From Clostridia bacterium (GTDB lineage: Bacteria; Bacillota; Clostridia; Oscillospirales; CAG-272): DNA of 64,000 nt. A model generated the notes under the pieces. That model made no database searches and had not been told where the DNA came from. It saw only the letters and a list, made by a program, of their open reading frames with translations. The DNA is taken from NCBI GenBank assembly GCA_017501245.1, contig JAFVXI010000026.1:30932-94931 (forward strand). Reading direction: 5' to 3'. A program made the translations under genes and the position numbers. Below, in pieces: positions 6,382 through 29,188 of the stretch (position 1 is the first letter of the stretch; the number at the start of each line of letters is the position of its first letter).

Positions 6382-6456
6382 TGGCAGGGGTAGCTGGATT
6401 CGGACCAACGAATAAAGGAGTCAAAGTCCTTTGCCTTACCACTTGGCGATACCCCT
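6382..6456 (-). tRNA. tRNA-Gln (anticodon UUG), CCA encoded
   Basis: The reverse complement reads AGGGGTATCGCCAAGTGGTAAGGCAAAGGACTTTGACTCCTTTATTCGTTGGTCCGAATCCAGCTACCCCTGCCA. It has a 7-bp acceptor stem and anticodon loop CUUUGAC, and closely resembles E. coli tRNA-Gln. Confidence 0.93.
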
Positions 6457-7832: not shown

Positions 7833-7907
7833 GCTGGTGTGGCTCAATGGCAGAGCAGCTGATTTGTAATCAGCAGGTTGTTGGTTCGACTCCGATCACC
7901 AGCTCCA
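7833..7907 (+). tRNA. tRNA-Thr (anticodon UGU), CCA encoded
   Basis: GCTGGTG...CACCAGC acceptor stem, anticodon arm GCTGA-TTTGTAA-TCAGC, T-loop TTCGACT, 75 nt. Confidence 0.92.
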
Positions 7908-7915
7908 TGATTAAT

Positions 7916-8000
7916 GGGGGAATTCCCGAGCGGCCAAAGGGGGCAGACTGTAAATCTGTTGTCACTGACTTCGCTGGTCCGAATCCAGCTTCCCCCACCA
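7916..8000 (+). tRNA. tRNA-Tyr (anticodon GUA), class II with long variable arm, CCA encoded
   Basis: GGGGGAA...TTCCCCC acceptor stem, anticodon loop CTGTAAA, long variable arm, 85 nt. It resembles E. coli tRNA-Tyr. Confidence 0.92.
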
Positions 8001-21462: not shown

Positions 21463-23046
21463 ATGACGAGAAGAAATCGCTTTATCTATAATGGAATCGT
21501 AATGAGCACCGTAGGAATACTCTTAAGAGGCATAACTCTTGCCTTTGGCGTGTATCTGTCGCACAGGATCGGGGCGGAGGGTGTCGGCTTAAACACGCTT
21601 ATCATGAGCGTCTACGGCTTTGCTCTCACCTTCGCAACCTCGGGCATATCACTTACGGTAACAAAGCTTGTTGCTTCTCACATAGGCGAGGGCAGGGAAG
21701 AGGAGATCCGCAAGACGCTATCGGGTGCGGCACTCTATTCGCTGGCGTTTTCCTTGGCAGCCACGCTCGTTCTGGCGGGCTTCTCAGGCTTTTTTGCGAC
21801 CGTATGCATCAAGGACGCAAGAGCAATAATGCCCTTGCAGATATTGTCTCTTTCGCTTATTCCATCGGCAGTCATCGGTATAATAAACGGATATTTCGTC
21901 GCCATAAGAAGGATAGGGTTCAGCTCGGCTGTTTCGCTCTTCGGTCAGCTGATGAGAATAGCCTTGACCGTGCTGATCCTTATGGGGGCCGAGAGCGGTG
22001 ACGTGGAGGGCTCGGTCTTTGCCCTTTGCATCAGTGCAACGCTGTCGGAGCTATCTGCGATGCTCCTCGGGCTCGTCCTCTTCCTTATTAATATTGCCGG
22101 AGCAGGCGGAAGGCTCAAGGGCAAAAGGGGAGCTAACGTCAAGGCCGTGGCGGAAATGGCGCTCCCCCTATCTGCATCAGCATACATAAGGTCGGGTCTT
22201 CTTTCCGTCGAGCATAATATCATACCCGAGCGGCTGAGAAAAGGAGGGCAGAGCCCGTCGCAGGCTCTGTCCTCCTTCGGAACTATGCACGGCATGGCGC
22301 TGCCGATGATAACCTATCCAATGACCCCCCTCACCTCATTTGGCTCGCTGCTTTTGCCCGAGTTCGCTGAAGCGGAGGCAAATAAAAACAGTGCAAGGCT
22401 TTCTCGTATAGCAAGAGAGGCGATATCGGCGACGCTATCCTATTCCGTGCTTTGCGCTACGCTGATGTATATCTTCTCGGAGGACCTCGGCTATGCGTTT
22501 TATAACTCCTATCGCGTAGGCTATTTTATATCCATACTTGCGCCGATAATACCGATAATGTATGCCGATCACGTCGTGGACTCCATGCTTAAGGGGATCG
22601 GAGAGCAGGTCTATTCCATGTGGGTAAACATCATAGACTCAGCGCTCTCCGTCGCTCTCGTATGGCTGCTGATCCCGGTTATGGGCATCGAGGGCTATGC
22701 AGTGGTCATTATCGTAATGGAGCTTTTCAACTTCTTTTTATCGCTCCATCGCCTTTTGCACCGCATAGTGCTTAAGCTTGATCCGATCAGGTCCTTACTG
22801 ATTCCTCTTTTATGCGCAGGCATTTCCGCTATGGCGGTGAGTCACCTGTTTGCCTCAGGGTCAACTCTGCCCGTATGGTGCCTGGTTTTAAAACTAATAT
22901 TTACATTATGCATGTATTTTGCTCTATATATCCCCGCATCGTGCTTATATTCAAAGCTCGCCTCAAGAGGTCATAAATGCGGCAACCATCATAGCGCAAT
23001 AACCGAAGATCAAAAGAAAGGCGCTTCGTCTCGGACCCGCCAGTGA
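21463..23046 (+). CDS. MOP-superfamily flippase (SpoVB / polysaccharide biosynthesis protein-like)
   Basis: About 14 hydrophobic segments. The N-terminus RNRFIYNGIVMSTVGILLRGITLAFGVYLSHRIGAEGVGL is typical of SpoVB-like proteins. I prefer the ATG at 21463. Confidence 0.75.
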   Translation: MTRRNRFIYNGIVMSTVGILLRGITLAFGVYLSHRIGAEGVGLNTLIMSVYGFALTFATSGISLTVTKLVASHIGEGREEEIRKTLSGAALYSLAFSLAATLVLAGFSGFFATVCIKDARAIMPLQILSLSLIPSAVIGIINGYFVAIRRIGFSSAVSLFGQLMRIALTVLILMGAESGDVEGSVFALCISATLSELSAMLLGLVLFLINIAGAGGRLKGKRGANVKAVAEMALPLSASAYIRSGLLSVEHNIIPERLRKGGQSPSQALSSFGTMHGMALPMITYPMTPLTSFGSLLLPEFAEAEANKNSARLSRIAREAISATLSYSVLCATLMYIFSEDLGYAFYNSYRVGYFISILAPIIPIMYADHVVDSMLKGIGEQVYSMWVNIIDSALSVALVWLLIPVMGIEGYAVVIIVMELFNFFLSLHRLLHRIVLKLDPIRSLLIPLLCAGISAMAVSHLFASGSTLPVWCLVLKLIFTLCMYFALYIPASCLYSKLASRGHKCGNHHSAITEDQKKGASSRTRQ

Positions 23047-23682
23047 GCATTCGGGTATCATCTCCGAGGAGATTACGTAAAGCATCGTTCCACCGGCAAA
23101 CGCAAGGACGAAGGGCAAGAGGGGGGCGGCTACACCGCCTGCGGCATAGCCGACAAATGTGCCTAAGACCTCGGCGACGCCCCCTGCGAGGGTCAGTATT
23201 ATCGCCTTCGCCGGCTTGACACCCGAGCTCACCATAGGGAAAACGGTTATCATCCCCTCCGGCACGTTGTGTATGGCTATCCCGATGGCAACCAGCAGAC
23301 CTCCGTGCGTATCACCCGTGCCAAACCCTATTCCCGCTGCGATCCCCTCGGGCAGATTGTGTATAGCCATCGCTATCGCAAAGAGAATGGCTGATCGAAG
23401 CCCCTTTCCGCCATTATCGGTTGGTAAAAGCCGCTCCGTCAAATATAAAAATGCGGCACCCGAAAACATGCCGACAATTCCGAGAAAGCAGCTAAAGCCG
23501 TCAGCGTCGTCGAATGCGGGAGCTATAAGACTGCTGACAGCGGCAGCAAGCATAACCCCGGCGGCAAAGGAGCATATAGCTTCGCTATGCCGCCGTGCCC
23601 CGGAGCGAAAAAGATAGCCGAGGATGGCGCCAAGCACCGTCGCACCTCCTACGCCGGCGGCACAAATTATTAAAGTTTGCAT
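22963..23682 (-). CDS. ZIP-family (ZupT-like) divalent metal transporter
   Basis: AIHNLPEGIAAG and AIHNVPEGM signatures. I prefer the ATG at 23682 (AAGGAAG SD). The 3' end overlaps the convergent flippase ORF by 84 nt. Confidence 0.8.
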   Translation of the reverse strand: MQTLIICAAGVGGATVLGAILGYLFRSGARRHSEAICSFAAGVMLAAAVSSLIAPAFDDADGFSCFLGIVGMFSGAAFLYLTERLLPTDNGGKGLRSAILFAIAMAIHNLPEGIAAGIGFGTGDTHGGLLVAIGIAIHNVPEGMITVFPMVSSGVKPAKAIILTLAGGVAEVLGTFVGYAAGGVAAPLLPFVLAFAGGTMLYVISSEMIPECSLAGPRRSAFLLIFGYCAMMVAAFMTS

Positions 23683-23700
23683 ATTTCTTCCTTTAAACGA

Positions 23701-23745
23701 TAAAAAAAGGACTGCCGTGAGCATTGCTCTTTTGACAGTCCTTTT
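23701..23745 (-). terminator. Rho-independent terminator after the CNNM gene
   Basis: On the minus strand: AAGGACTG ... CAGTCCTT (8 bp, branched loop containing GAGCA/TGCTC) followed by T7. The ZIP SD follows within about 10 nt. Confidence 0.6.
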
Positions 23746-23760
23746 CTTTTTTTAATTCTA

Positions 23761-25056
23761 TTATTCTTCTGTTTCGGCAGCGTCGTCGTCAGCCTCGTCA
23801 TCCTCGCTCACGCGCGTGTCAAGGATATGAAGATTCTCGATCCTTCTGCCCTCCATTTTAAGAACCTTAACGGTGAGACCGAGAGCCTCAAAGCTATCTC
23901 CCTCCTCAGCGATCTTGCCGAGGATGTCCATAGCCCATCCGTTAACGGTCATAGCATCGGACTCCTCCTCGCCCTCAGGCAGCTCGATATCCAATTCGTC
24001 AAACAGCTTGTCGATATTAGCCTTGCCCGACACTATGTATTCCTTTTCCGAGATCTGCTTGATCTCCTCGACGATCTCGTCATGCTCATCCCAGATCTCG
24101 CCGACGATCTCTTCGATTATATCCTCGAGAGTCACGATGCCGGCAGTGGATCCGTATTCGTCCGAAACGACGGCAAGATGCAGCTGCTTTTCCTGTAGAT
24201 CCTTAAGCAGATCGTTTATCTTCTGCGTCTTCGTGACGAAGATAATGGGCTTAACGATCTCGGATATAGGCGTATCCGTGTGATAGCATTCGGTGAAGAA
24301 GTCCTTATAATATACTATGCCGGTGATGTTATCCAGGTCACTCTCGTAGATCGGAATTCTCGAGTAGCCCGATTCGGCGTAAACCTTCGCAAGCTCCTCC
24401 TTCGAAACGTCGCTTCTCACGGCAGTGATATCAATTCTGGGGGTCAGGATCTCGCTGACCTCCATATCGTTGAACTCAATGGCACTCTTGATCAGCGTAC
24501 CCTCCTCCTCGTCAAGGCCTCCGTCCTCCTCAGCCTCCTCGATGATGGAGATGAGCTCCTCCTCGGTCATGCCCTTGTCGTCGTCATTCTTAAAGATCTT
24601 GGAAAGGAACTTCTGAAGACCTCTGAAGATGATGCTGATGGGCCAGAGCACGATGCGCAGCAAATTGATCAACGGAGCGGAGAACATTGAGAACTTCTCG
24701 GGGAACTGCTTTGCCAGCGTCTTAGGTACGATCTCGCCGAAGGTAAGCACGATAAGCGTCATAACGACGGTCGAGAGCGTTGTGGAGAGTCCCTCGTTTC
24801 CTACGATCCACATAGCGAATAAGAGTGTCGCAAGTGAGGATGCAAGTATATTTACGATGTTGTTTCCAATGAGAATGGTTGAGATAAGGGTGTCGTAATT
24901 CTCAGAGAGCTTAAGCACCAGCTCGGCGCGCTTGTTTCCCTTTTCTGCGATATTTTTCATCCTGATCCTGTTGAAGGTAGAGAATGCAGTCTCGGTAGCC
25001 GAGAAATATGCAGACATGACCACACAGCAGAGTACGATGACTAACATTATTTCCAT
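23761..25056 (-). CDS. CNNM/CorB-family transporter (DUF21 TM domain + CBS pair + CorC_HlyC), hemolysin-family annotation type
   Basis: 431 aa. N-terminal DUF21 pattern (SAYFSATETAFSTFNRIRM...GNNIVNI...GEIVPK), a CBS pair region, and C-terminal CorC_HlyC (TVNGWAMD...G...V.V..M.GRRI). Confidence 0.85.
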   Translation of the reverse strand: MEIMLVIVLCCVVMSAYFSATETAFSTFNRIRMKNIAEKGNKRAELVLKLSENYDTLISTILIGNNIVNILASSLATLLFAMWIVGNEGLSTTLSTVVMTLIVLTFGEIVPKTLAKQFPEKFSMFSAPLINLLRIVLWPISIIFRGLQKFLSKIFKNDDDKGMTEEELISIIEEAEEDGGLDEEEGTLIKSAIEFNDMEVSEILTPRIDITAVRSDVSKEELAKVYAESGYSRIPIYESDLDNITGIVYYKDFFTECYHTDTPISEIVKPIIFVTKTQKINDLLKDLQEKQLHLAVVSDEYGSTAGIVTLEDIIEEIVGEIWDEHDEIVEEIKQISEKEYIVSGKANIDKLFDELDIELPEGEEESDAMTVNGWAMDILGKIAEEGDSFEALGLTVKVLKMEGRRIENLHILDTRVSEDDEADDDAAETEE

Positions 25057-25183
25057 TTTCGTTCGATTTTTCTTGTTTTTCCCGCTTTCTCGGGAAATTT
25101 AAAGCCTTTCTTGTTTATAAATATTCCGTGCAAAATCACGGTGGATAACGGTGCGGGGAGTGGGGAAGGGAAATTAAGACAAG

Positions 25184-25230
25184 CAAAAAAAGGCATAGCC
25201 ATACCCCCGTCCGAGAGTGCGGCTGTGCCT
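25184..25230 (-). terminator. Intrinsic terminator (attenuator) inside the CNNM leader, 6 nt after the small ORF stop
   Basis: On the minus strand: AGGCACAGCC(25230-25221), 20-nt loop, GGCTATGCCT(25200-25191), then T run to 25184. There are 9 Watson-Crick pairs plus one C.A mismatch. The loop is larger than in ideal terminators. Confidence 0.55.
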
Positions 25231-25235
25231 GTATA

Positions 25236-25286
25236 TTAACGTATATTAGCGGTGTGACAAGTGTCCGCGTCCGCGTCGTCGTCCAT
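25236..25286 (-). CDS. 16-codon Asp-rich small/leader ORF (MDDDADADTCHTANIR)
   Basis: GGAGG(25296-25292), 5-nt spacer, then ATG GAC GAC GAC GCG GAC GCG GAC ACT TGT CAC ACC GCT AAT ATA CGT TAA. A consensus promoter lies upstream and a terminator downstream. The ORF is too short for the ORF track. Confidence 0.55.
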   Translation of the reverse strand: MDDDADADTCHTANIR

Positions 25287-25339
25287 TTCTTCCTCCAAAA
25301 AAATGCTTTACTGTATCCTGCAAAGCGTTACTGGCAGTT

Positions 25340-25368
25340 ATTATATCATATCCTCTCCGACTTGTCAA
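25340..25368 (-). promoter_or_regulatory. Consensus SigA promoter driving the small ORF and the CNNM leader
   Basis: On the minus strand: TTGACA(25368-25363), 17 nt, TATAAT(25345-25340). Confidence 0.65.
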
Positions 25369-25431
25369 GCCCATTTTCAAAAAGCCTTCGATATTAACCG
25401 TTTGTTAACCGACGGATTTTCGTTATCCGCA

Positions 25432-25460
25432 TTGACATTCACGTGTCGTTCGTGTATAAT
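25432..25460 (+). promoter_or_regulatory. Consensus SigA promoter of the ABC exporter operon
   Basis: TTGACA(25432-25437), 17 nt, TATAAT(25455-25460). Confidence 0.65.
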
Positions 25461-25527
25461 AACTAGATAGATAGTATGATCTTTCACCTATGGTGAAAGC
25501 TTGCGTAAAGAAAAAGAAAGGACAAAA

Positions 25528-27285
25528 ATGCTGAAAACGTTACTTAAGAGCGTCAGAGAATATAAGCTCGTTACGATACTGACGCCCCTGCTTGTGTTTT
25601 TTGAGATAATCATCGAGTGCATCATCCCGATGGTCATCGCCGAGCTTGTCAATAAGCTCCAGTCTGAGAGCGGAATGCGCATAGAGGATATCCTCGCCTA
25701 TGGCGGCGTGGTCGTCGTTCTCGCCATTCTTTCGCTCGCCTTTGGCGCCCTCGCCGGTCTCACCTGCTCGACGGCGTCCTGCGGCTTTGCCAAAAATCTC
25801 AGAAGAGATATGTTCGTTGCGACTCAGGGCTTCTCATTTGAGAACATAGACAGGTTTTCAACCTCCTCGCTCGTCACGAGGCTCACCACTGACGTCACCA
25901 ACGTTCAGCACGCCTTTATGATGATCACGAGGATGGCTGTCAGAGCCCCCTTCATGTTTATCTTCGCTATAATTATGGCGTTCATTATGGGAGGACCTAT
26001 GGCATGGATCTTCGTCGTAGTCGTTCCGATCCTCCTCACCGTCCTCATCCTCGTCATTAAAAGCGTTATGCCTCTTTTCAAGAAGGTTTTCAAGAAGTAC
26101 GATAAGCTTAACGCCTCCGTCCAGGAGAACGTAAAGGGCATCAGAGTTATCAAATCCTTCGTGAGAGAGGACTACGAGGAGGAGAAGTTTGCCCGCGCAT
26201 CCGAGGAGGTCTGCCGTGACTTCACCCGTGCCGAGCGCATCCTCGTTATCCAGAATCCCACGATGCAGCTCTGCCTTAACATCGTTATGGTTTTCGTCCT
26301 CTCCTTTGGCTCCTATATGGTAGTTTCCTCGGGCGGCGAGGCTCTTGGTGTCGGCCATCTGTCTGCGCTCCTGACTTACGGATTTATGATCCTCTCCAGC
26401 CTTATGTCGCTCTCGATGATCTTCGTTATGCTCACTATGGCGACCGAGTCGGGCAGGAGAATAGCTGAGGTCCTTCTTGAAAAGCCCGCACTCTCCGAGC
26501 CTGCCGATCCCGTCCTCGCCGTTAAGGACGGCTCGATAGACTTCGACGGCGTTTTCTTCAAGTATTCCCAAAATGCCGAGCGCTTCGTCCTCTCGGATAT
26601 AGATCTTCATATCGCCTCGGGCGAGACGATAGGCATCATCTCGGGCACCGGCGCATCGAAAACCACGCTAATCCAGCTTATCAGCCGTCTTTACGACGTG
26701 ACCGAGGGCTCGGTCAGGGTCGGCGGCGTCGACGTAAGAGACTACGACCTCGAGACCTTAAGAGATAATGTTGCGGTCGTCTTACAGAAAAACCTTCTGT
26801 TCTCGGGCACCATCGCAGAAAACCTCAGGTGGGGAGACCCGAACGCAACTCTTGACGAGATAAAGGAGGCGTGCAGGCTTGCCGCCGCCGACGGCTTCGT
26901 CGAGTCCTTCCCCGATCAGTACGATACGTATATAGAGCAGGGCGGAGCAAACGTATCCGGCGGTCAGAAGCAGAGGCTCTGTATTGCCCGTGCGCTCTTA
27001 AAGCGACCTAAGATCCTCATTCTCGACGACTCTACCTCTGCGGTAGACACCGAGACGGATGCACGCATCCGTGCCGCAATGCGTGAGTATATCCCCGAAA
27101 CAACTAAGATTATAATTGCCCAGAGAATATCCTCGGTTGAGGATGCCGATAGGATCATCGTTCTCGAGAGCGGAAGGATCAGCGCCATAGGCACTCACGC
27201 CGAGCTCATCCGTTCCTCCGAGATCTACCGCGATATCTATCTCTCGCAGAACAAGGCAGGAGTCGAGGAGGTAGCAAATGGGTAG
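25528..27285 (+). CDS. ABC exporter, fused permease/ATPase, subunit 1 of a heterodimeric pair
   Basis: Six-TM domain followed by an NBD (GTGASKTT Walker A, VSGGQKQRLCIARAL signature, ILILDDSTSAVD Walker B). I prefer the ATG at 25528 over the TTG at 25501. Confidence 0.85.
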   Translation: MLKTLLKSVREYKLVTILTPLLVFFEIIIECIIPMVIAELVNKLQSESGMRIEDILAYGGVVVVLAILSLAFGALAGLTCSTASCGFAKNLRRDMFVATQGFSFENIDRFSTSSLVTRLTTDVTNVQHAFMMITRMAVRAPFMFIFAIIMAFIMGGPMAWIFVVVVPILLTVLILVIKSVMPLFKKVFKKYDKLNASVQENVKGIRVIKSFVREDYEEEKFARASEEVCRDFTRAERILVIQNPTMQLCLNIVMVFVLSFGSYMVVSSGGEALGVGHLSALLTYGFMILSSLMSLSMIFVMLTMATESGRRIAEVLLEKPALSEPADPVLAVKDGSIDFDGVFFKYSQNAERFVLSDIDLHIASGETIGIISGTGASKTTLIQLISRLYDVTEGSVRVGGVDVRDYDLETLRDNVAVVLQKNLLFSGTIAENLRWGDPNATLDEIKEACRLAAADGFVESFPDQYDTYIEQGGANVSGGQKQRLCIARALLKRPKILILDDSTSAVDTETDARIRAAMREYIPETTKIIIAQRISSVEDADRIIVLESGRISAIGTHAELIRSSEIYRDIYLSQNKAGVEEVANG

Positions 27286-29188
27286 TCAGAAAATGAAATC
27301 CAAGGCGAAAAAGGGAACGATGGCAAGGCTCATCAAAACCGTCTTTTCCTTCTATCCCCGTATGCTGCCGCTCACTCTTATGTGCATCGCCTTTGCGGCA
27401 ATAATTTCGACCCTACCGTCGATCTTCCTTCAAAACATCATCGGTCTTGTAACCGACGCACTCGACACGGGTAAGGGCTGGGATGAGATCTCCTCGTCCG
27501 TTTTCAGCTTCGTTATCATCCTCGTGTGCTTATACGCAGTATCTCTCACGTCGGGCTTCCTTTGGAATCAGCTTATGGCTGTCATCACTCAGGGGACGCT
27601 TAAAAAGCTCCGTGATAAAATGTTCAACAAGATGGAGAGACTCCCCGTCAAGTATTTCGACACGAACAATCACGGCGATATTATGAGCCATTATACCAAC
27701 GATATAGACACGCTGCGCCAGGTGGTCTCTCAAAGCCTTCCTCAGCTCGTTATGTCAAGTATTGTTGTCATTTCGTTGCTAATTATAATGGTATACTTCT
27801 CACTTTGGATGACTCTCGTAGTTCTCGTCGGTGTGTTTGCGATGCTGTTCGTAACCAAGAAGATAGGCGGAGGCTCGGCTCGACACTTCATCCGTCAGCA
27901 GGTGGCTATCGGAAGGGCTGAGGGCTTCATTGAGGAGACCATCCACGGACAGAAGGTAGTCAAGGTCTTTTGCCACGAGGAGGCGTCGATTTCCGATTTC
28001 GACAAGGTAAACGACGAGCTGTTCCGCGAGGCAGACAGGGCAAACAAGTATGCAAACACCCTCGGACCTATCCTTAATAATATAGGAAACGTTCTTTACG
28101 TTATCGTTGCGATAGCGGGTGGCATTATGTGTCTCCTTATCCCCGAGTATAACGTGTCGCTCTCCGGTCTTGCCTTCTCGGTTGCCGTCGTCGTCCCCTT
28201 CCTTAATATGACCAAGCAGTTCACCGGCTCGGTCAACCAGGTTTCCCATCAGATCAATTCGGTAGTTATGGGACTTGCAGGCGCATCCAGGATCTTCGAT
28301 CTTCTTGATGAGGAGGAGGAAAAGGACGAGGGCTACGTAACTCTCGTTGACGCAGAGTACGTAAACGGCGAGCTCACCGAATGCGATCACCACACAGGCA
28401 TATGGGCGTGGAAGCATCCGCATAAGGAAACGGGCGAGACAACCTACGTGCTGCTTCAGGGTGACGTCAGATTTACAGAGGTCGACTTTGAGTATGAGCC
28501 GGGAAAGCCCGTACTTAAAAACATAACCCTCTACGCCGAGCCGGGTCAGAAGGTCGCCTTCGTTGGCGCCACCGGTGCAGGAAAGACGACCATCACGAAC
28601 CTCATCAACCGCTTTTACGATATCGCCGATGGCAAGATCCGCTACGACGGCATCAATATCAACAAGATATCCAAGAGAGCGCTCAGGCGCTCGCTCGGCA
28701 TCGTCCTCCAGGACACTAACCTCTTCACAGGAACGGTTATGGACAATATTCGCTACGGCAAGCTTGAGGCATCCGACGAGGAGTGCATCGAAGCGGCTCG
28801 TCTCGTAGGCGCAGACGATTTCATCACGAGGATGCCCAAGGGCTATGCAACCGAGATAACCAACAACGGCGCAAATCTCTCGCAGGGTCAGCGTCAGCTT
28901 ATAGCGATTGCAAGAGCCGCTGTTGCCGATCCTCCGGTAATGATCCTCGACGAGGCAACCTCCTCGATAGACACGAGGACCGAGTCGATAGTTCAAAGAG
29001 GTATGGACACGCTTATGAAGGGCAGGACGGTGTTCGTCATAGCTCATAGGCTCTCAACGGTAAAAAATTCCGATGTTATTATGGTTCTAGACCACGGTGA
29101 GATCATCGAGCGAGGAAGCCACGATGATCTGATCGAAAAGAAGGGACAGTATTATAAGCTTTACACAGGAGCCTTTGAGCTCGAATAA
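27278..29188 (+). CDS. ABC exporter, fused permease/ATPase, subunit 2
   Basis: GATGAGKTT, LSQGQRQLIAIARA and VMILDEATSSID motifs. Overlaps subunit 1 by 8 nt. Confidence 0.85.
   Translation: MGSQKMKSKAKKGTMARLIKTVFSFYPRMLPLTLMCIAFAAIISTLPSIFLQNIIGLVTDALDTGKGWDEISSSVFSFVIILVCLYAVSLTSGFLWNQLMAVITQGTLKKLRDKMFNKMERLPVKYFDTNNHGDIMSHYTNDIDTLRQVVSQSLPQLVMSSIVVISLLIIMVYFSLWMTLVVLVGVFAMLFVTKKIGGGSARHFIRQQVAIGRAEGFIEETIHGQKVVKVFCHEEASISDFDKVNDELFREADRANKYANTLGPILNNIGNVLYVIVAIAGGIMCLLIPEYNVSLSGLAFSVAVVVPFLNMTKQFTGSVNQVSHQINSVVMGLAGASRIFDLLDEEEEKDEGYVTLVDAEYVNGELTECDHHTGIWAWKHPHKETGETTYVLLQGDVRFTEVDFEYEPGKPVLKNITLYAEPGQKVAFVGATGAGKTTITNLINRFYDIADGKIRYDGININKISKRALRRSLGIVLQDTNLFTGTVMDNIRYGKLEASDEECIEAARLVGADDFITRMPKGYATEITNNGANLSQGQRQLIAIARAAVADPPVMILDEATSSIDTRTESIVQRGMDTLMKGRTVFVIAHRLSTVKNSDVIMVLDHGEIIERGSHDDLIEKKGQYYKLYTGAFELE

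Follow-up and report, generated by a model that had tools for sequence, protein, structure and literature searches.

A short leader ORF and a terminator upstream of a CNNM transporter gene

We analyzed a 64,000-nucleotide stretch of DNA from a Clostridia bacterium (contig JAFVXI010000026.1, positions 30,932 to 94,931), which we refer to as the window. Our subject is a gene on its minus strand that encodes a transporter of the CNNM/CorB type, together with the leader in front of this gene, which holds a promoter, a very short open reading frame (ORF) that begins with a run of aspartate codons, and an intrinsic terminator (Table 1). An earlier note, made from the letters alone, had located the promoter, the Shine-Dalgarno (SD) sequence, the ORF, and its stop codon, and had suggested that the leader is a ribosome-mediated attenuator. 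When we read the minus strand directly, every one of these elements was where the note had placed it. The promoter matches the consensus hexamers at 12 of 12 positions and has an extended -10 element; transcription is predicted to start near 25333. The ORF reads ATG GAC GAC GAC GCG GAC GCG GAC ACT TGT CAC ACC GCT AAT ATA CGT TAA. The note had also described a hairpin and a run of seven T beginning six nucleotides past the stop codon. The hairpin is indeed present, starting at 25230, but it is longer than was described: besides the outer stem (AGGCA.AGCCG / UGGCU.UGCCU), it has an inner stem. Its folding energy is -22.7 kcal/mol (z = -4.2 versus dinucleotide shuffles).

The start codon of the CNNM gene lies 127 nt past the U-run of the terminator. 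Between the terminator and this start codon, the promoter scan of the minus strand found no promoter-like site, as the earlier note had also concluded. Within the 64-kb window, the leader ORF is the only short ORF that is preceded by an SD sequence, has an acidic N-terminus, and lies next to a run of T. Similarly, the 64 kb contain a single instance of the pattern GGAGG-N4-9-ATGGAYGAYG, versus 0.00 expected.

Table 1. Features of the leader and of the genes that it precedes, and acidic ORFs upstream of CNNM genes in relatives. Positions are those of the window unless a locus label (L041 and so on) is given.
Feature	Position	Strand	Description
Sigma-70-type promoter	25340..25368	-	TTGACA 25368-25363, 17-nt spacer, TATAAT 25345-25340; TG at 25348-25347
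5' hairpin and U-run	25297..25326	-	7-bp hairpin 25326-25305, A + U7 25304-25297; adjoins the SD sequence
SD sequence	25292..25296	-	GGAGG, 5 nt before the ATG; read directly
Leader ORF	25236..25286	-	16 codons + stop; encodes MDDDADADTCHTANIR; ATG at 25286, stop 25238-25236
Proposed sensor part of the leader ORF	25283-25257	-	codons 2-10, DDDADADTC
Intrinsic terminator	25184..25230	-	hairpin 25230-25191, U7 25190-25184; begins 5 nt past the leader stop
Terminator-to-CNNM spacer	25057..25183	-	C-rich tract ~25170-25140, GAAAGG 25110-25105, small hairpin 25097-25078
CNNM/CorB-type transporter gene	23761..25056	-	431 aa; DUF21/CNNM transmembrane domain, CBS pair, CorC_HlyC (Pfam)
ZIP/ZupT-like transporter gene	22963..23724	-	Pfam Zip, weak NCBIfam ZupT; directly downstream of CNNM
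MDDPSKRR-family ORFs	L041 1137-1262; L054 166-288; L058 2815-2937; L076 2539-2658; L077 2827-2937		
xSDDxAVPYHS-family ORFs	L020 841-930; L026 2762-2914; L031 2848-2985; L037 323-460		

The leader is conserved and is linked to CNNM genes

We scanned the CNNM protein against one genome per species and retrieved 80 loci with 46–75% identity. All 80 loci are from Clostridia, mostly from ruminant and gut metagenome-assembled genomes. By blastn, about 25 of these loci had a match to the leader of the window in the region immediately before CNNM, and the conserved stretch reaches from the SD sequence through the whole terminator. When we searched with a profile of the leader (nhmmer), 28 of the 80 genome loci matched, with a single match per locus that was always just upstream of CNNM. 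These 28 loci correspond to approximately all of the CNNM orthologues above ~60% identity.

The same elements recur in the same order upstream of these genes: the promoter, often a hairpin, GGAGG, an ORF that begins ATG GAC GAC G and is short, and a terminator whose tail is UUUUUUUGCU. Of the 50 related leaders that we examined, nearly all have a promoter of the form TTGAC(A/T)-17-TAnnAT, with a TG at the equivalent position. In most relatives, the GGAGG is 4–5 nt ahead of the leader's ATG. The earlier note had proposed a comparison of this kind, and an aspartate-rich ORF whose stop codon is within about 10 nt of a terminator, or inside it, is conserved upstream of CNNM orthologues.

We also scanned a metagenome collection in a way that does not depend on CNNM, using the DNA pattern ATGGACGACG-N60-90-GCCTTTTTTTGC. 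There were 24 matches, and 20 of them had a GGAGG and a short ORF beginning MDD. The other four lack an SD sequence, lie in unrelated contexts, and are chance matches. Of the 20 contigs with an SD sequence, three end at the contig edge; in all of the 17 that have room for it, a CNNM orthologue is encoded downstream (17/17). What decides the matter is that the leader is conserved in relatives: as judged from these sequence comparisons, the presence of the leader upstream of CNNM is not due to chance.

The hairpin and U7 between the promoter and the SD sequence are absent from the earlier note and were scored as terminator-like in our scan. This hairpin is kept in most close relatives, with differing stem sequences, and is missing in distant ones. 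It is possible that it acts as a 5' stabilizer, a pause site, a translation enhancer, or a weak first terminator.

The leader ORF has the character of a coding sequence

We collected 48 distinct leader peptides of 13–28 residues, with the consensus M-D-D-[GA]-[DA]-[GDA]-x-[TD]-C-[QH]. Across these peptides, residues 2–9 are 44% aspartate or glutamate; another 53% are glycine, alanine, serine, threonine, asparagine, or cysteine; 3% are other residues; and there is no lysine or arginine. From residue 11 to the end, only 4% of residues are acidic and 60% are bulky or other residues (including basic ones). This C-terminal half varies in both sequence and length.

Several features indicate how the ORF has changed. 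The distance from the ATG to the conserved cysteine is 8, 9, or 10 codons, so the insertions and deletions are always in frame. There are synonymous changes for cysteine (TGT/TGC), glycine (GGC/GGT/GGA/GGG), and alanine (GCG/GCA/GCC), and serine codons of both types, AGT and TCG, occur at equivalent positions. Most substitutions are interchanges among glycine, alanine, aspartate, and threonine. These patterns bear out what the earlier note would have expected of a translated ORF, namely codon changes that are synonymous or conservative and indels that preserve the frame. The start codon and the SD sequence are retained in nearly all members (a GTG start is found in L024 and in the variants from Gemmiger that are described below). 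Judging from the substitutions, the constraint is on an acidic and small composition rather than on the exact peptide sequence.

A local hairpin within the ORF (GACGGG/CUUGUC) was considered and rejected. It is the only recurrent one, and it is broken by the synonymous change of TGT to TGC in L009, L010, and L013, which argues for selection on the amino acids and hence for coding over structure. Two features are conserved at the level of nucleotides: ATGGACGACG and the arms of the terminator are highly conserved, and the aspartate codons of the leaders are biased towards GAC over GAT (87:11). Distant families of acidic leaders use GAT for aspartate where the main family has GAC.

The stop codon abuts a covarying terminator, with no antiterminator

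We measured the position of the stop codon relative to the stem of the terminator; an earlier comparison of frame lengths had separated the frames only weakly, and the detection of T-runs had been unreliable. The stop codon of every one of the 48 leaders has its end in the interval from 12 nt upstream of the terminator's 5' arm to 26 nt inside it; for the other two reading frames, this holds in 14 and 18 of the 48. Such a geometry fits with, but does not prove, a terminator whose formation depends on the position of the ribosome. Thirteen leaders stop at a UAG that lies within the conserved 5' arm, GGCUUAGCC.

The stem itself covaries, as the earlier note had anticipated for a functional terminator. 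Nine of its 12 pairs have changed on both sides and 86% of cells are paired, which none of 500 shuffles reach, with the caveat that the arms in this test were picked by complementarity. When 29 leaders were aligned with MAFFT, which gives an unbiased alignment, and analyzed with RNAalifold, the terminator helix was also recovered, with compensatory changes in five of nine pairs. RNAalifold found no consensus structure in these 29 leaders besides the terminator.

In classical attenuators of the trp type, a competing antiterminator hairpin decides the outcome. We rejected this mechanism here, as no such hairpin was found in folds, by RNAalifold, or from duplex energies relative to shuffles. If the transcript is folded only up to the loop of the terminator, then the 5' arm is unpaired. 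Pairing of the 3' half of the ORF with the 5' arm is no stronger than for shuffled sequences (-4.4 versus -5.2 kcal/mol; significant in 0/48). Pairing of this half with the 3' arm is slightly stronger than for shuffled sequences (-7.4 versus -5.9 kcal/mol; significant in 8/48), and the two arms of the terminator pair at -14.0 kcal/mol. This pairing involves ACCGUA, a motif found in the 3' half of many of the ORFs (within 25236-25262 on the minus strand of the window) and kept even where the frame differs, as in L014 and L017. Its complement in the 3' arm of the terminator is UACGGU. As an antiterminator, this pairing of 5–6 bp was rejected: it is absent in L006, it is significant in just those few leaders, and it is much weaker than the terminator. 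Given the strong terminator and the lack of an antiterminator, termination is the default for this RNA. The only conserved feature that could prevent termination is a ribosome at the end of the ORF.

Could the leader instead be a structured RNA, such as a riboswitch or a protein-binding leader, in which the ORF is incidental? For example, the GAC repeats or GGA motifs might bind a regulator, or a ligand-binding fold might control the terminator. The nucleotide conservation of ATGGACGACG and the terminator arms, the preference for GAC, the retention of ACCGUA across frames, and the 8/48 significant pairings with the 3' arm could all be explained in this way. But the only conserved structure is the terminator, and positions 24800–25600 have no relevant match in Rfam 15 even at E = 10. 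(In particular, the leader is not an M-box, as the earlier note had said.) Nor did Rfam identify a riboswitch upstream of CNNM in 20 of the distant loci. A structured RNA also would not account for the in-frame indels, the synonymous changes and the AGT/TCG changes for serine, the retention of the SD sequence and start codon, the loss of the sole local hairpin by TGT-to-TGC changes, or the retention of aspartate with GAT codons in distant families. We consider this explanation very improbable.

Another possibility, which the earlier note had raised, is that the ORF is a tiny gene in its own right, which has a promoter and a terminator to itself and encodes a small protein with a separate function, and that CNNM is transcribed from another promoter. 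The terminator is strong, and the spacer of the window is 127 nt long; furthermore, the spacers of L006 and L016 contain promoter-like hexamers. These hexamer matches are sporadic and nothing about them is conserved, so we rejected a second promoter in the spacer. In L030, L025, and L063, just 38–50 nt separate the terminator from CNNM, which leaves no room for a separate promoter and ribosome binding site, and no promoter was found in the window's spacer. An independent gene would also not be expected to co-occur strictly with CNNM, as it does in the pattern scan, or to conserve the geometry of stop codon and terminator while the C-terminal half of its product is unconserved and its length ranges from 13 to 28 residues. 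Overall, an independent gene is very unlikely.

The spacer of the window has two other features. Directly past the terminator is a C-rich, G-poor tract, CCCUUCCCCACUCCCCGCACCG (25140-25170 on the minus strand), which also occurs in L021 and is not conserved in the other relatives. This tract resembles a rut site or, alternatively, is complementary to the G-rich start of the leader ORF. Closer to the gene, at 23–50 nt upstream of the ATG of CNNM, the close clade has a conserved GAAAGG followed by a small hairpin (UUUCCCG/CGGGAAA; 25078-25110 on the minus strand of the window). In distant relatives, GAAAGGA is an SD sequence at the normal spacing, and the CNNM start in the window lacks a good adjacent SD sequence. 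The GAAAGG and the hairpin could be a split SD sequence that is bridged by the hairpin, or they could be a further control element.

Other acidic leaders appear to couple translation to CNNM in different ways

Where CNNM orthologues lack the main leader, a different short ORF whose N-terminus is acidic often lies upstream, and three further families of acidic leaders were recognized. One family, MDDPSKRR...RAHFEL..LLKL, has 36–41 codons and two internal hairpins and was found at five loci (L041, L054, L058, L076, and L077). Its last codons contain an anti-SD sequence that pairs with the SD sequence of CNNM, and in four of the five cases, this duplex is stronger than for shuffled sequences. Full translation of the ORF would unmask the ribosome binding site of CNNM. 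In a second family, xSDDxAVPYHS, the ORF runs through a terminator in L026 and L037; it ends 3 nt before the ATG of CNNM in L031 and overlaps this ATG in L037.

There are further variants. Those from Gemmiger (L028 2710-2754, from Gemmiger gallinarum DSM 109015, and L036 2705-2749) encode (M)ADIDADANPYCCI; 5 nt beyond this ORF begins a terminator hairpin that is very long, with an insertion of 70–85 nt in its loop. In L074 (1524-1604), the ORF encodes MNGDDSNKPPS... and ends inside its own terminator.

As predicted from these sequences, anti-SD unmasking and the stop/start overlap are two further architectures that couple full translation of an acidic ORF to CNNM. This is hard to reconcile with anything other than completed translation of the acidic ORF turning CNNM on. 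The same polarity had been suggested in the earlier note for the main leader, and it is backed both by the absence of an antiterminator and by these two unrelated families. What the leaders share points to the acidic N-terminus, often DD-P, as a common sensor.

The reverse polarity would be that stalling or abortion within the acidic run (at low Mg2+) turns CNNM on, as in the mgtL leader of mgtA. The analogy to mgtL and the weak possible pairing of the 3' half of the ORF with the terminator's 3' arm would favor it. But no competing structure sequesters either arm of the terminator (-7.4 versus -14.0 kcal/mol), and a ribosome that is stalled at codons 3–9 sits more than 15 nt from the stem. Also, the anti-SD unmasking and the stop/start overlap in the other families can only give positive coupling. 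We therefore have little belief in the reverse polarity.

The transporter genes

The earlier note's assignment of the downstream gene to the CNNM/CorB family, with CNNM, CBS, and CorC_HlyC domains, agrees with Pfam (E = 1e-52, 1e-15, and 2.5e-18, respectively). Among solved structures, the nearest are those of archaeal CorB (7m1t; E = 3.6e-55) and of domains of TpCorC. In the transmembrane domain of TpCorC, Mg2+ is coordinated by Ser43, Ser47, Asn90, Gly129, and Glu130 (PMC7875539). The SxxxS, GNN, and GE(I)xPK motifs of the window's protein (SAYFSATE, IGNNIVN, and FGEIVPK) align with these residues. We infer that the CNNM protein exports Mg2+. The protein scores below the cut-off of every NCBIfam equivalog model; both the PaeA and the CorC models match it at sub-cut-off scores. 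We also asked if the CNNM proteins themselves have an acidic N-terminus like that of YbeX, and we found no consistent pattern across the 80 loci.

The next gene, which encodes a ZIP/ZupT-like transporter, is probably cotranscribed with CNNM. A metal importer directly behind a putative exporter is an odd pairing. ZIP follows CNNM only in L001–L003, the three closest relatives, so it is not a conserved partner, and we ruled it out as the true target of the leader.

A model for regulation by completion of the leader peptide

Taken together, these results make it very probable that the leader is a transcription attenuator for CNNM that acts via a leader peptide, with completion of translation as the "on" state. 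In the window, a strong constitutive promoter would start the transcript near 25333, and the first translatable element would be the 16-codon ORF. By default, the terminator would form and CNNM would be off. Only a ribosome that finishes the acidic ORF while RNA polymerase is making the terminator could cover the 5' arm at its base or unwind it there. This would prevent the hairpin, and transcription would continue into CNNM (and ZIP). When a stop codon occupies the A site, the footprint of the ribosome extends about 12 nt past the first base of the codon. For the leader of the window, the footprint would reach the first 4–5 nt of the stem, which form the pairs next to the U-tract on which termination depends.

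What would vary is whether the ribosome reaches the stop codon. N-terminal stretches that are rich in aspartate, glutamate, or proline and in small residues can abort translation while the exit tunnel is not yet filled, a phenomenon known as intrinsic ribosome destabilization (IRD) (Chadani et al., 10.1101/2021.02.02.429294). Bulky residues counter N-terminal IRD, and low Mg2+ or the loss of bL31 enhances it (10.1101/2021.02.02.429294). The composition of residues 2–9 of the leader peptides matches these published determinants (10.1101/2021.02.02.429294). In Salmonella, furthermore, high Mg2+ induces both corC and mgpA, and the cause that has been proposed is IRD in the N-terminus of CorC (PMC12421838). 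Thus, the acidic and small N-terminus of the leader would be the sensor: before the nascent chain fills the tunnel, it would be prone to abort, and more so at low free Mg2+. At high Mg2+, the ORF would be completed, RNA polymerase would read through, and more exporter would be made; at low Mg2+, abortion or delay would lead to termination and no exporter. More exporter at high Mg2+ is coherent given the IRD-type composition of the peptides and the retention of the Mg2+-site residues of TpCorC. We infer the blocking of the terminator by the ribosome, the occurrence of IRD on the leader peptide, and the role of Mg2+ as the physiological signal. For the full model, which includes IRD and Mg2+, our confidence is only somewhat better than even.

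Several points weigh against this model. Where the stop codon is 5–12 nt before the stem, a ribosome would reach only a few base pairs, given the size of its footprint, so occlusion would be marginal in such members. The ribosome must also stay within about 50 nt of RNA polymerase and keep pace with it over about 95 nt, and an uncoupling of transcription from translation has been reported for Bacillus subtilis. IRD does not account for the conserved cysteine (with its preceding threonine or asparagine) or for the GAC bias. The consensus MDDGDGNTC has just three aspartates in eight residues, which is below the classical IRD runs. Not every member of the CNNM family is a Mg2+ exporter: the substrates of PaeA are polyamines, and the PaeA model matches the window's protein, if below its cut-off. 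Finally, related sequences are not independent, so our counts overstate the statistics.

A rival explanation is an attenuator with the same architecture and polarity that responds to a signal other than free Mg2+, such as the charging of Asp- or Gly-tRNA, the activity or ATP/ADP state of an ABCF protein of the EttA/YfmR type, polyamines or other cations, or the general capacity of the ribosomes. In this case, the substrate that the CNNM protein exports might be a polyamine or a different cation. Where acidic residues occur early in a chain, as in MgtL, EttA lessens pausing and drop-off (PMC11282234), and 3–5 of the first eight leader codons are for aspartate. The conserved cysteine after the acidic run (often followed by histidine or glutamine) hints at something beyond charge. 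The match of the transporter to the PaeA model, with scores below the equivalog cut-offs, and the ZIP importer that is next in the window's operon would also fit with another signal. On the other hand, all of the Mg2+-coordinating residues of TpCorC are kept, and published IRD is specifically stronger at low Mg2+. CNNM is the only gene with which the leader is associated, rather than any gene for amino acid or energy metabolism, and ZIP is not a conserved partner. We view another signal as possible but rather unlikely.

Relation to known systems

The pyrBI and pyrE attenuators of E. coli also lack an antiterminator: the leader ORF abuts or enters an intrinsic terminator, and read-through requires a ribosome that follows closely. 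The leader described here shares this arrangement of an ORF against an intrinsic terminator without an antiterminator hairpin. In the pyrBI and pyrE leaders, however, it is the speed of the polymerase that varies (via UTP-sensitive pausing) and the sequence of the peptide is irrelevant, whereas the N-terminal peptide chemistry of the Clostridia leaders is conserved.

The closest analog for the proposed sensor is the mgtL leader of mgtA in Salmonella and E. coli, a short ORF in which an acidic nascent chain is the proposed sensor and in which abortion versus completion decides the transcription of a Mg2+ transporter (10.1101/2021.02.02.429294; PMC11282234). There is no sequence similarity: MgtL begins with MEPDPT, and the main family in Clostridia has no proline. 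The readout differs as well, as mgtL uses a stem-loop switch that exposes a Rho site, and here we propose that the ribosome occludes an intrinsic terminator. Furthermore, mgtL controls an importer in Enterobacteria, while the leader in Clostridia precedes an exporter-type CNNM gene and would have the opposite polarity, with completion as the "on" state.

In E. coli ybeX/corC, the logic and the peptide chemistry are the same as we propose here. The N-terminus MSDDNSHSSDT, with aspartate and small residues, undergoes IRD, and the authors proposed that higher Mg2+ raises the synthesis of the efflux protein (10.1101/2021.02.02.429294). The difference is that the acidic stretch of YbeX is in the protein itself and affects its own translation, while in Clostridia a separate ORF of 13–28 codons would gate a terminator. 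Such a separate leader would add amplification at the level of transcription.

Two other small ORFs are associated with Mg2+ transport. YoaL, from yoaE/mgpA of E. coli and Salmonella, is encoded by a small ORF that overlaps the start of an efflux gene with a CorC domain; its translation raises expression of this gene, and the gene is induced by high Mg2+ (PMC12421838). But YoaL has 52 amino acids, is basic (MDRHRRHFSIRPF...), and has no terminator architecture; it is unrelated, so we rejected kinship with it. In the Salmonella mgtC-mgtB intergenic region, aborted translation of a small ORF controls a Mg2+ transporter (PMC8092293). This ORF acts on the initiation of translation of an importer, via unfolding of the ribosome binding site, in Enterobacteria (PMC8092293).

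Our search of open-access papers and preprints gave no account of a leader of this kind in Firmicutes and no described regulator for mpfA, yhdP, or corB. As a type, the proposed element is a leader-peptide attenuator with IRD-type sensing. What is new is the peptide family, the combination of readouts, the inverted polarity, the host clade, and the target gene.

More broadly, gut Clostridia may hold a widespread class of switches that are turned on by Mg2+, in which, owing to IRD, the pioneer ribosome finishes an acidic leader only if free Mg2+ is sufficient and then turns on CNNM by blocking a terminator, unmasking an SD sequence, or re-initiating at an overlapping start codon. We are evenly divided about this generalization. 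If it is true, then IRD-based sensing of Mg2+ arose at least three to four times in front of the same gene family, independently of mgtL and with the polarity inverted, and the leaders would be the first known means by which Firmicutes regulate Mg2+ exporters. Destabilization by an acidic nascent chain would serve as an "on" switch, the mirror of mgtL, which would suggest that the ribosome is a general sensor of Mg2+. In any case, the leader offers a testable mechanism for the control of Mg2+ efflux in very abundant Clostridia of the gut and rumen. It is compact (about 150 nt from promoter to terminator) and could become a portable part that responds to cations or to translation fidelity. It also illustrates that functional ORFs of 13–28 codons, which gene callers miss, can be recognized by conservation of the SD sequence and start codon, by in-frame indels, and by the geometry of stop codon and terminator.

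Other features of the region

Two ORFs overlap the leader region, at 25261-25470 on the plus strand and at 25488-25682 on the minus strand. Neither has a match in Pfam, and we treated both as spurious.

A second promoter with 12/12 matches to the consensus lies on the opposite strand (25432-25460, plus strand), back to back with the leader's promoter. It drives two genes for ABC exporters (ABC_membrane and ABC_tran domains; 594 and 636 amino acids; 25501-29188, plus strand). In L001 and L002, the first of these genes likewise lies divergent to the leader.

The only Rfam matches in the window at the gathering score are three tRNA genes, at 6385-6456 (minus strand), 7833-7904 (plus strand), and 7916-7997 (plus strand). 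Among the relatives, the CNNM gene of L035, which lacks an acidic leader, has a match to the Rfam family RAGATH-18 about 180 nt upstream (2745-2818; 61 bits versus a gathering score of 44.9).

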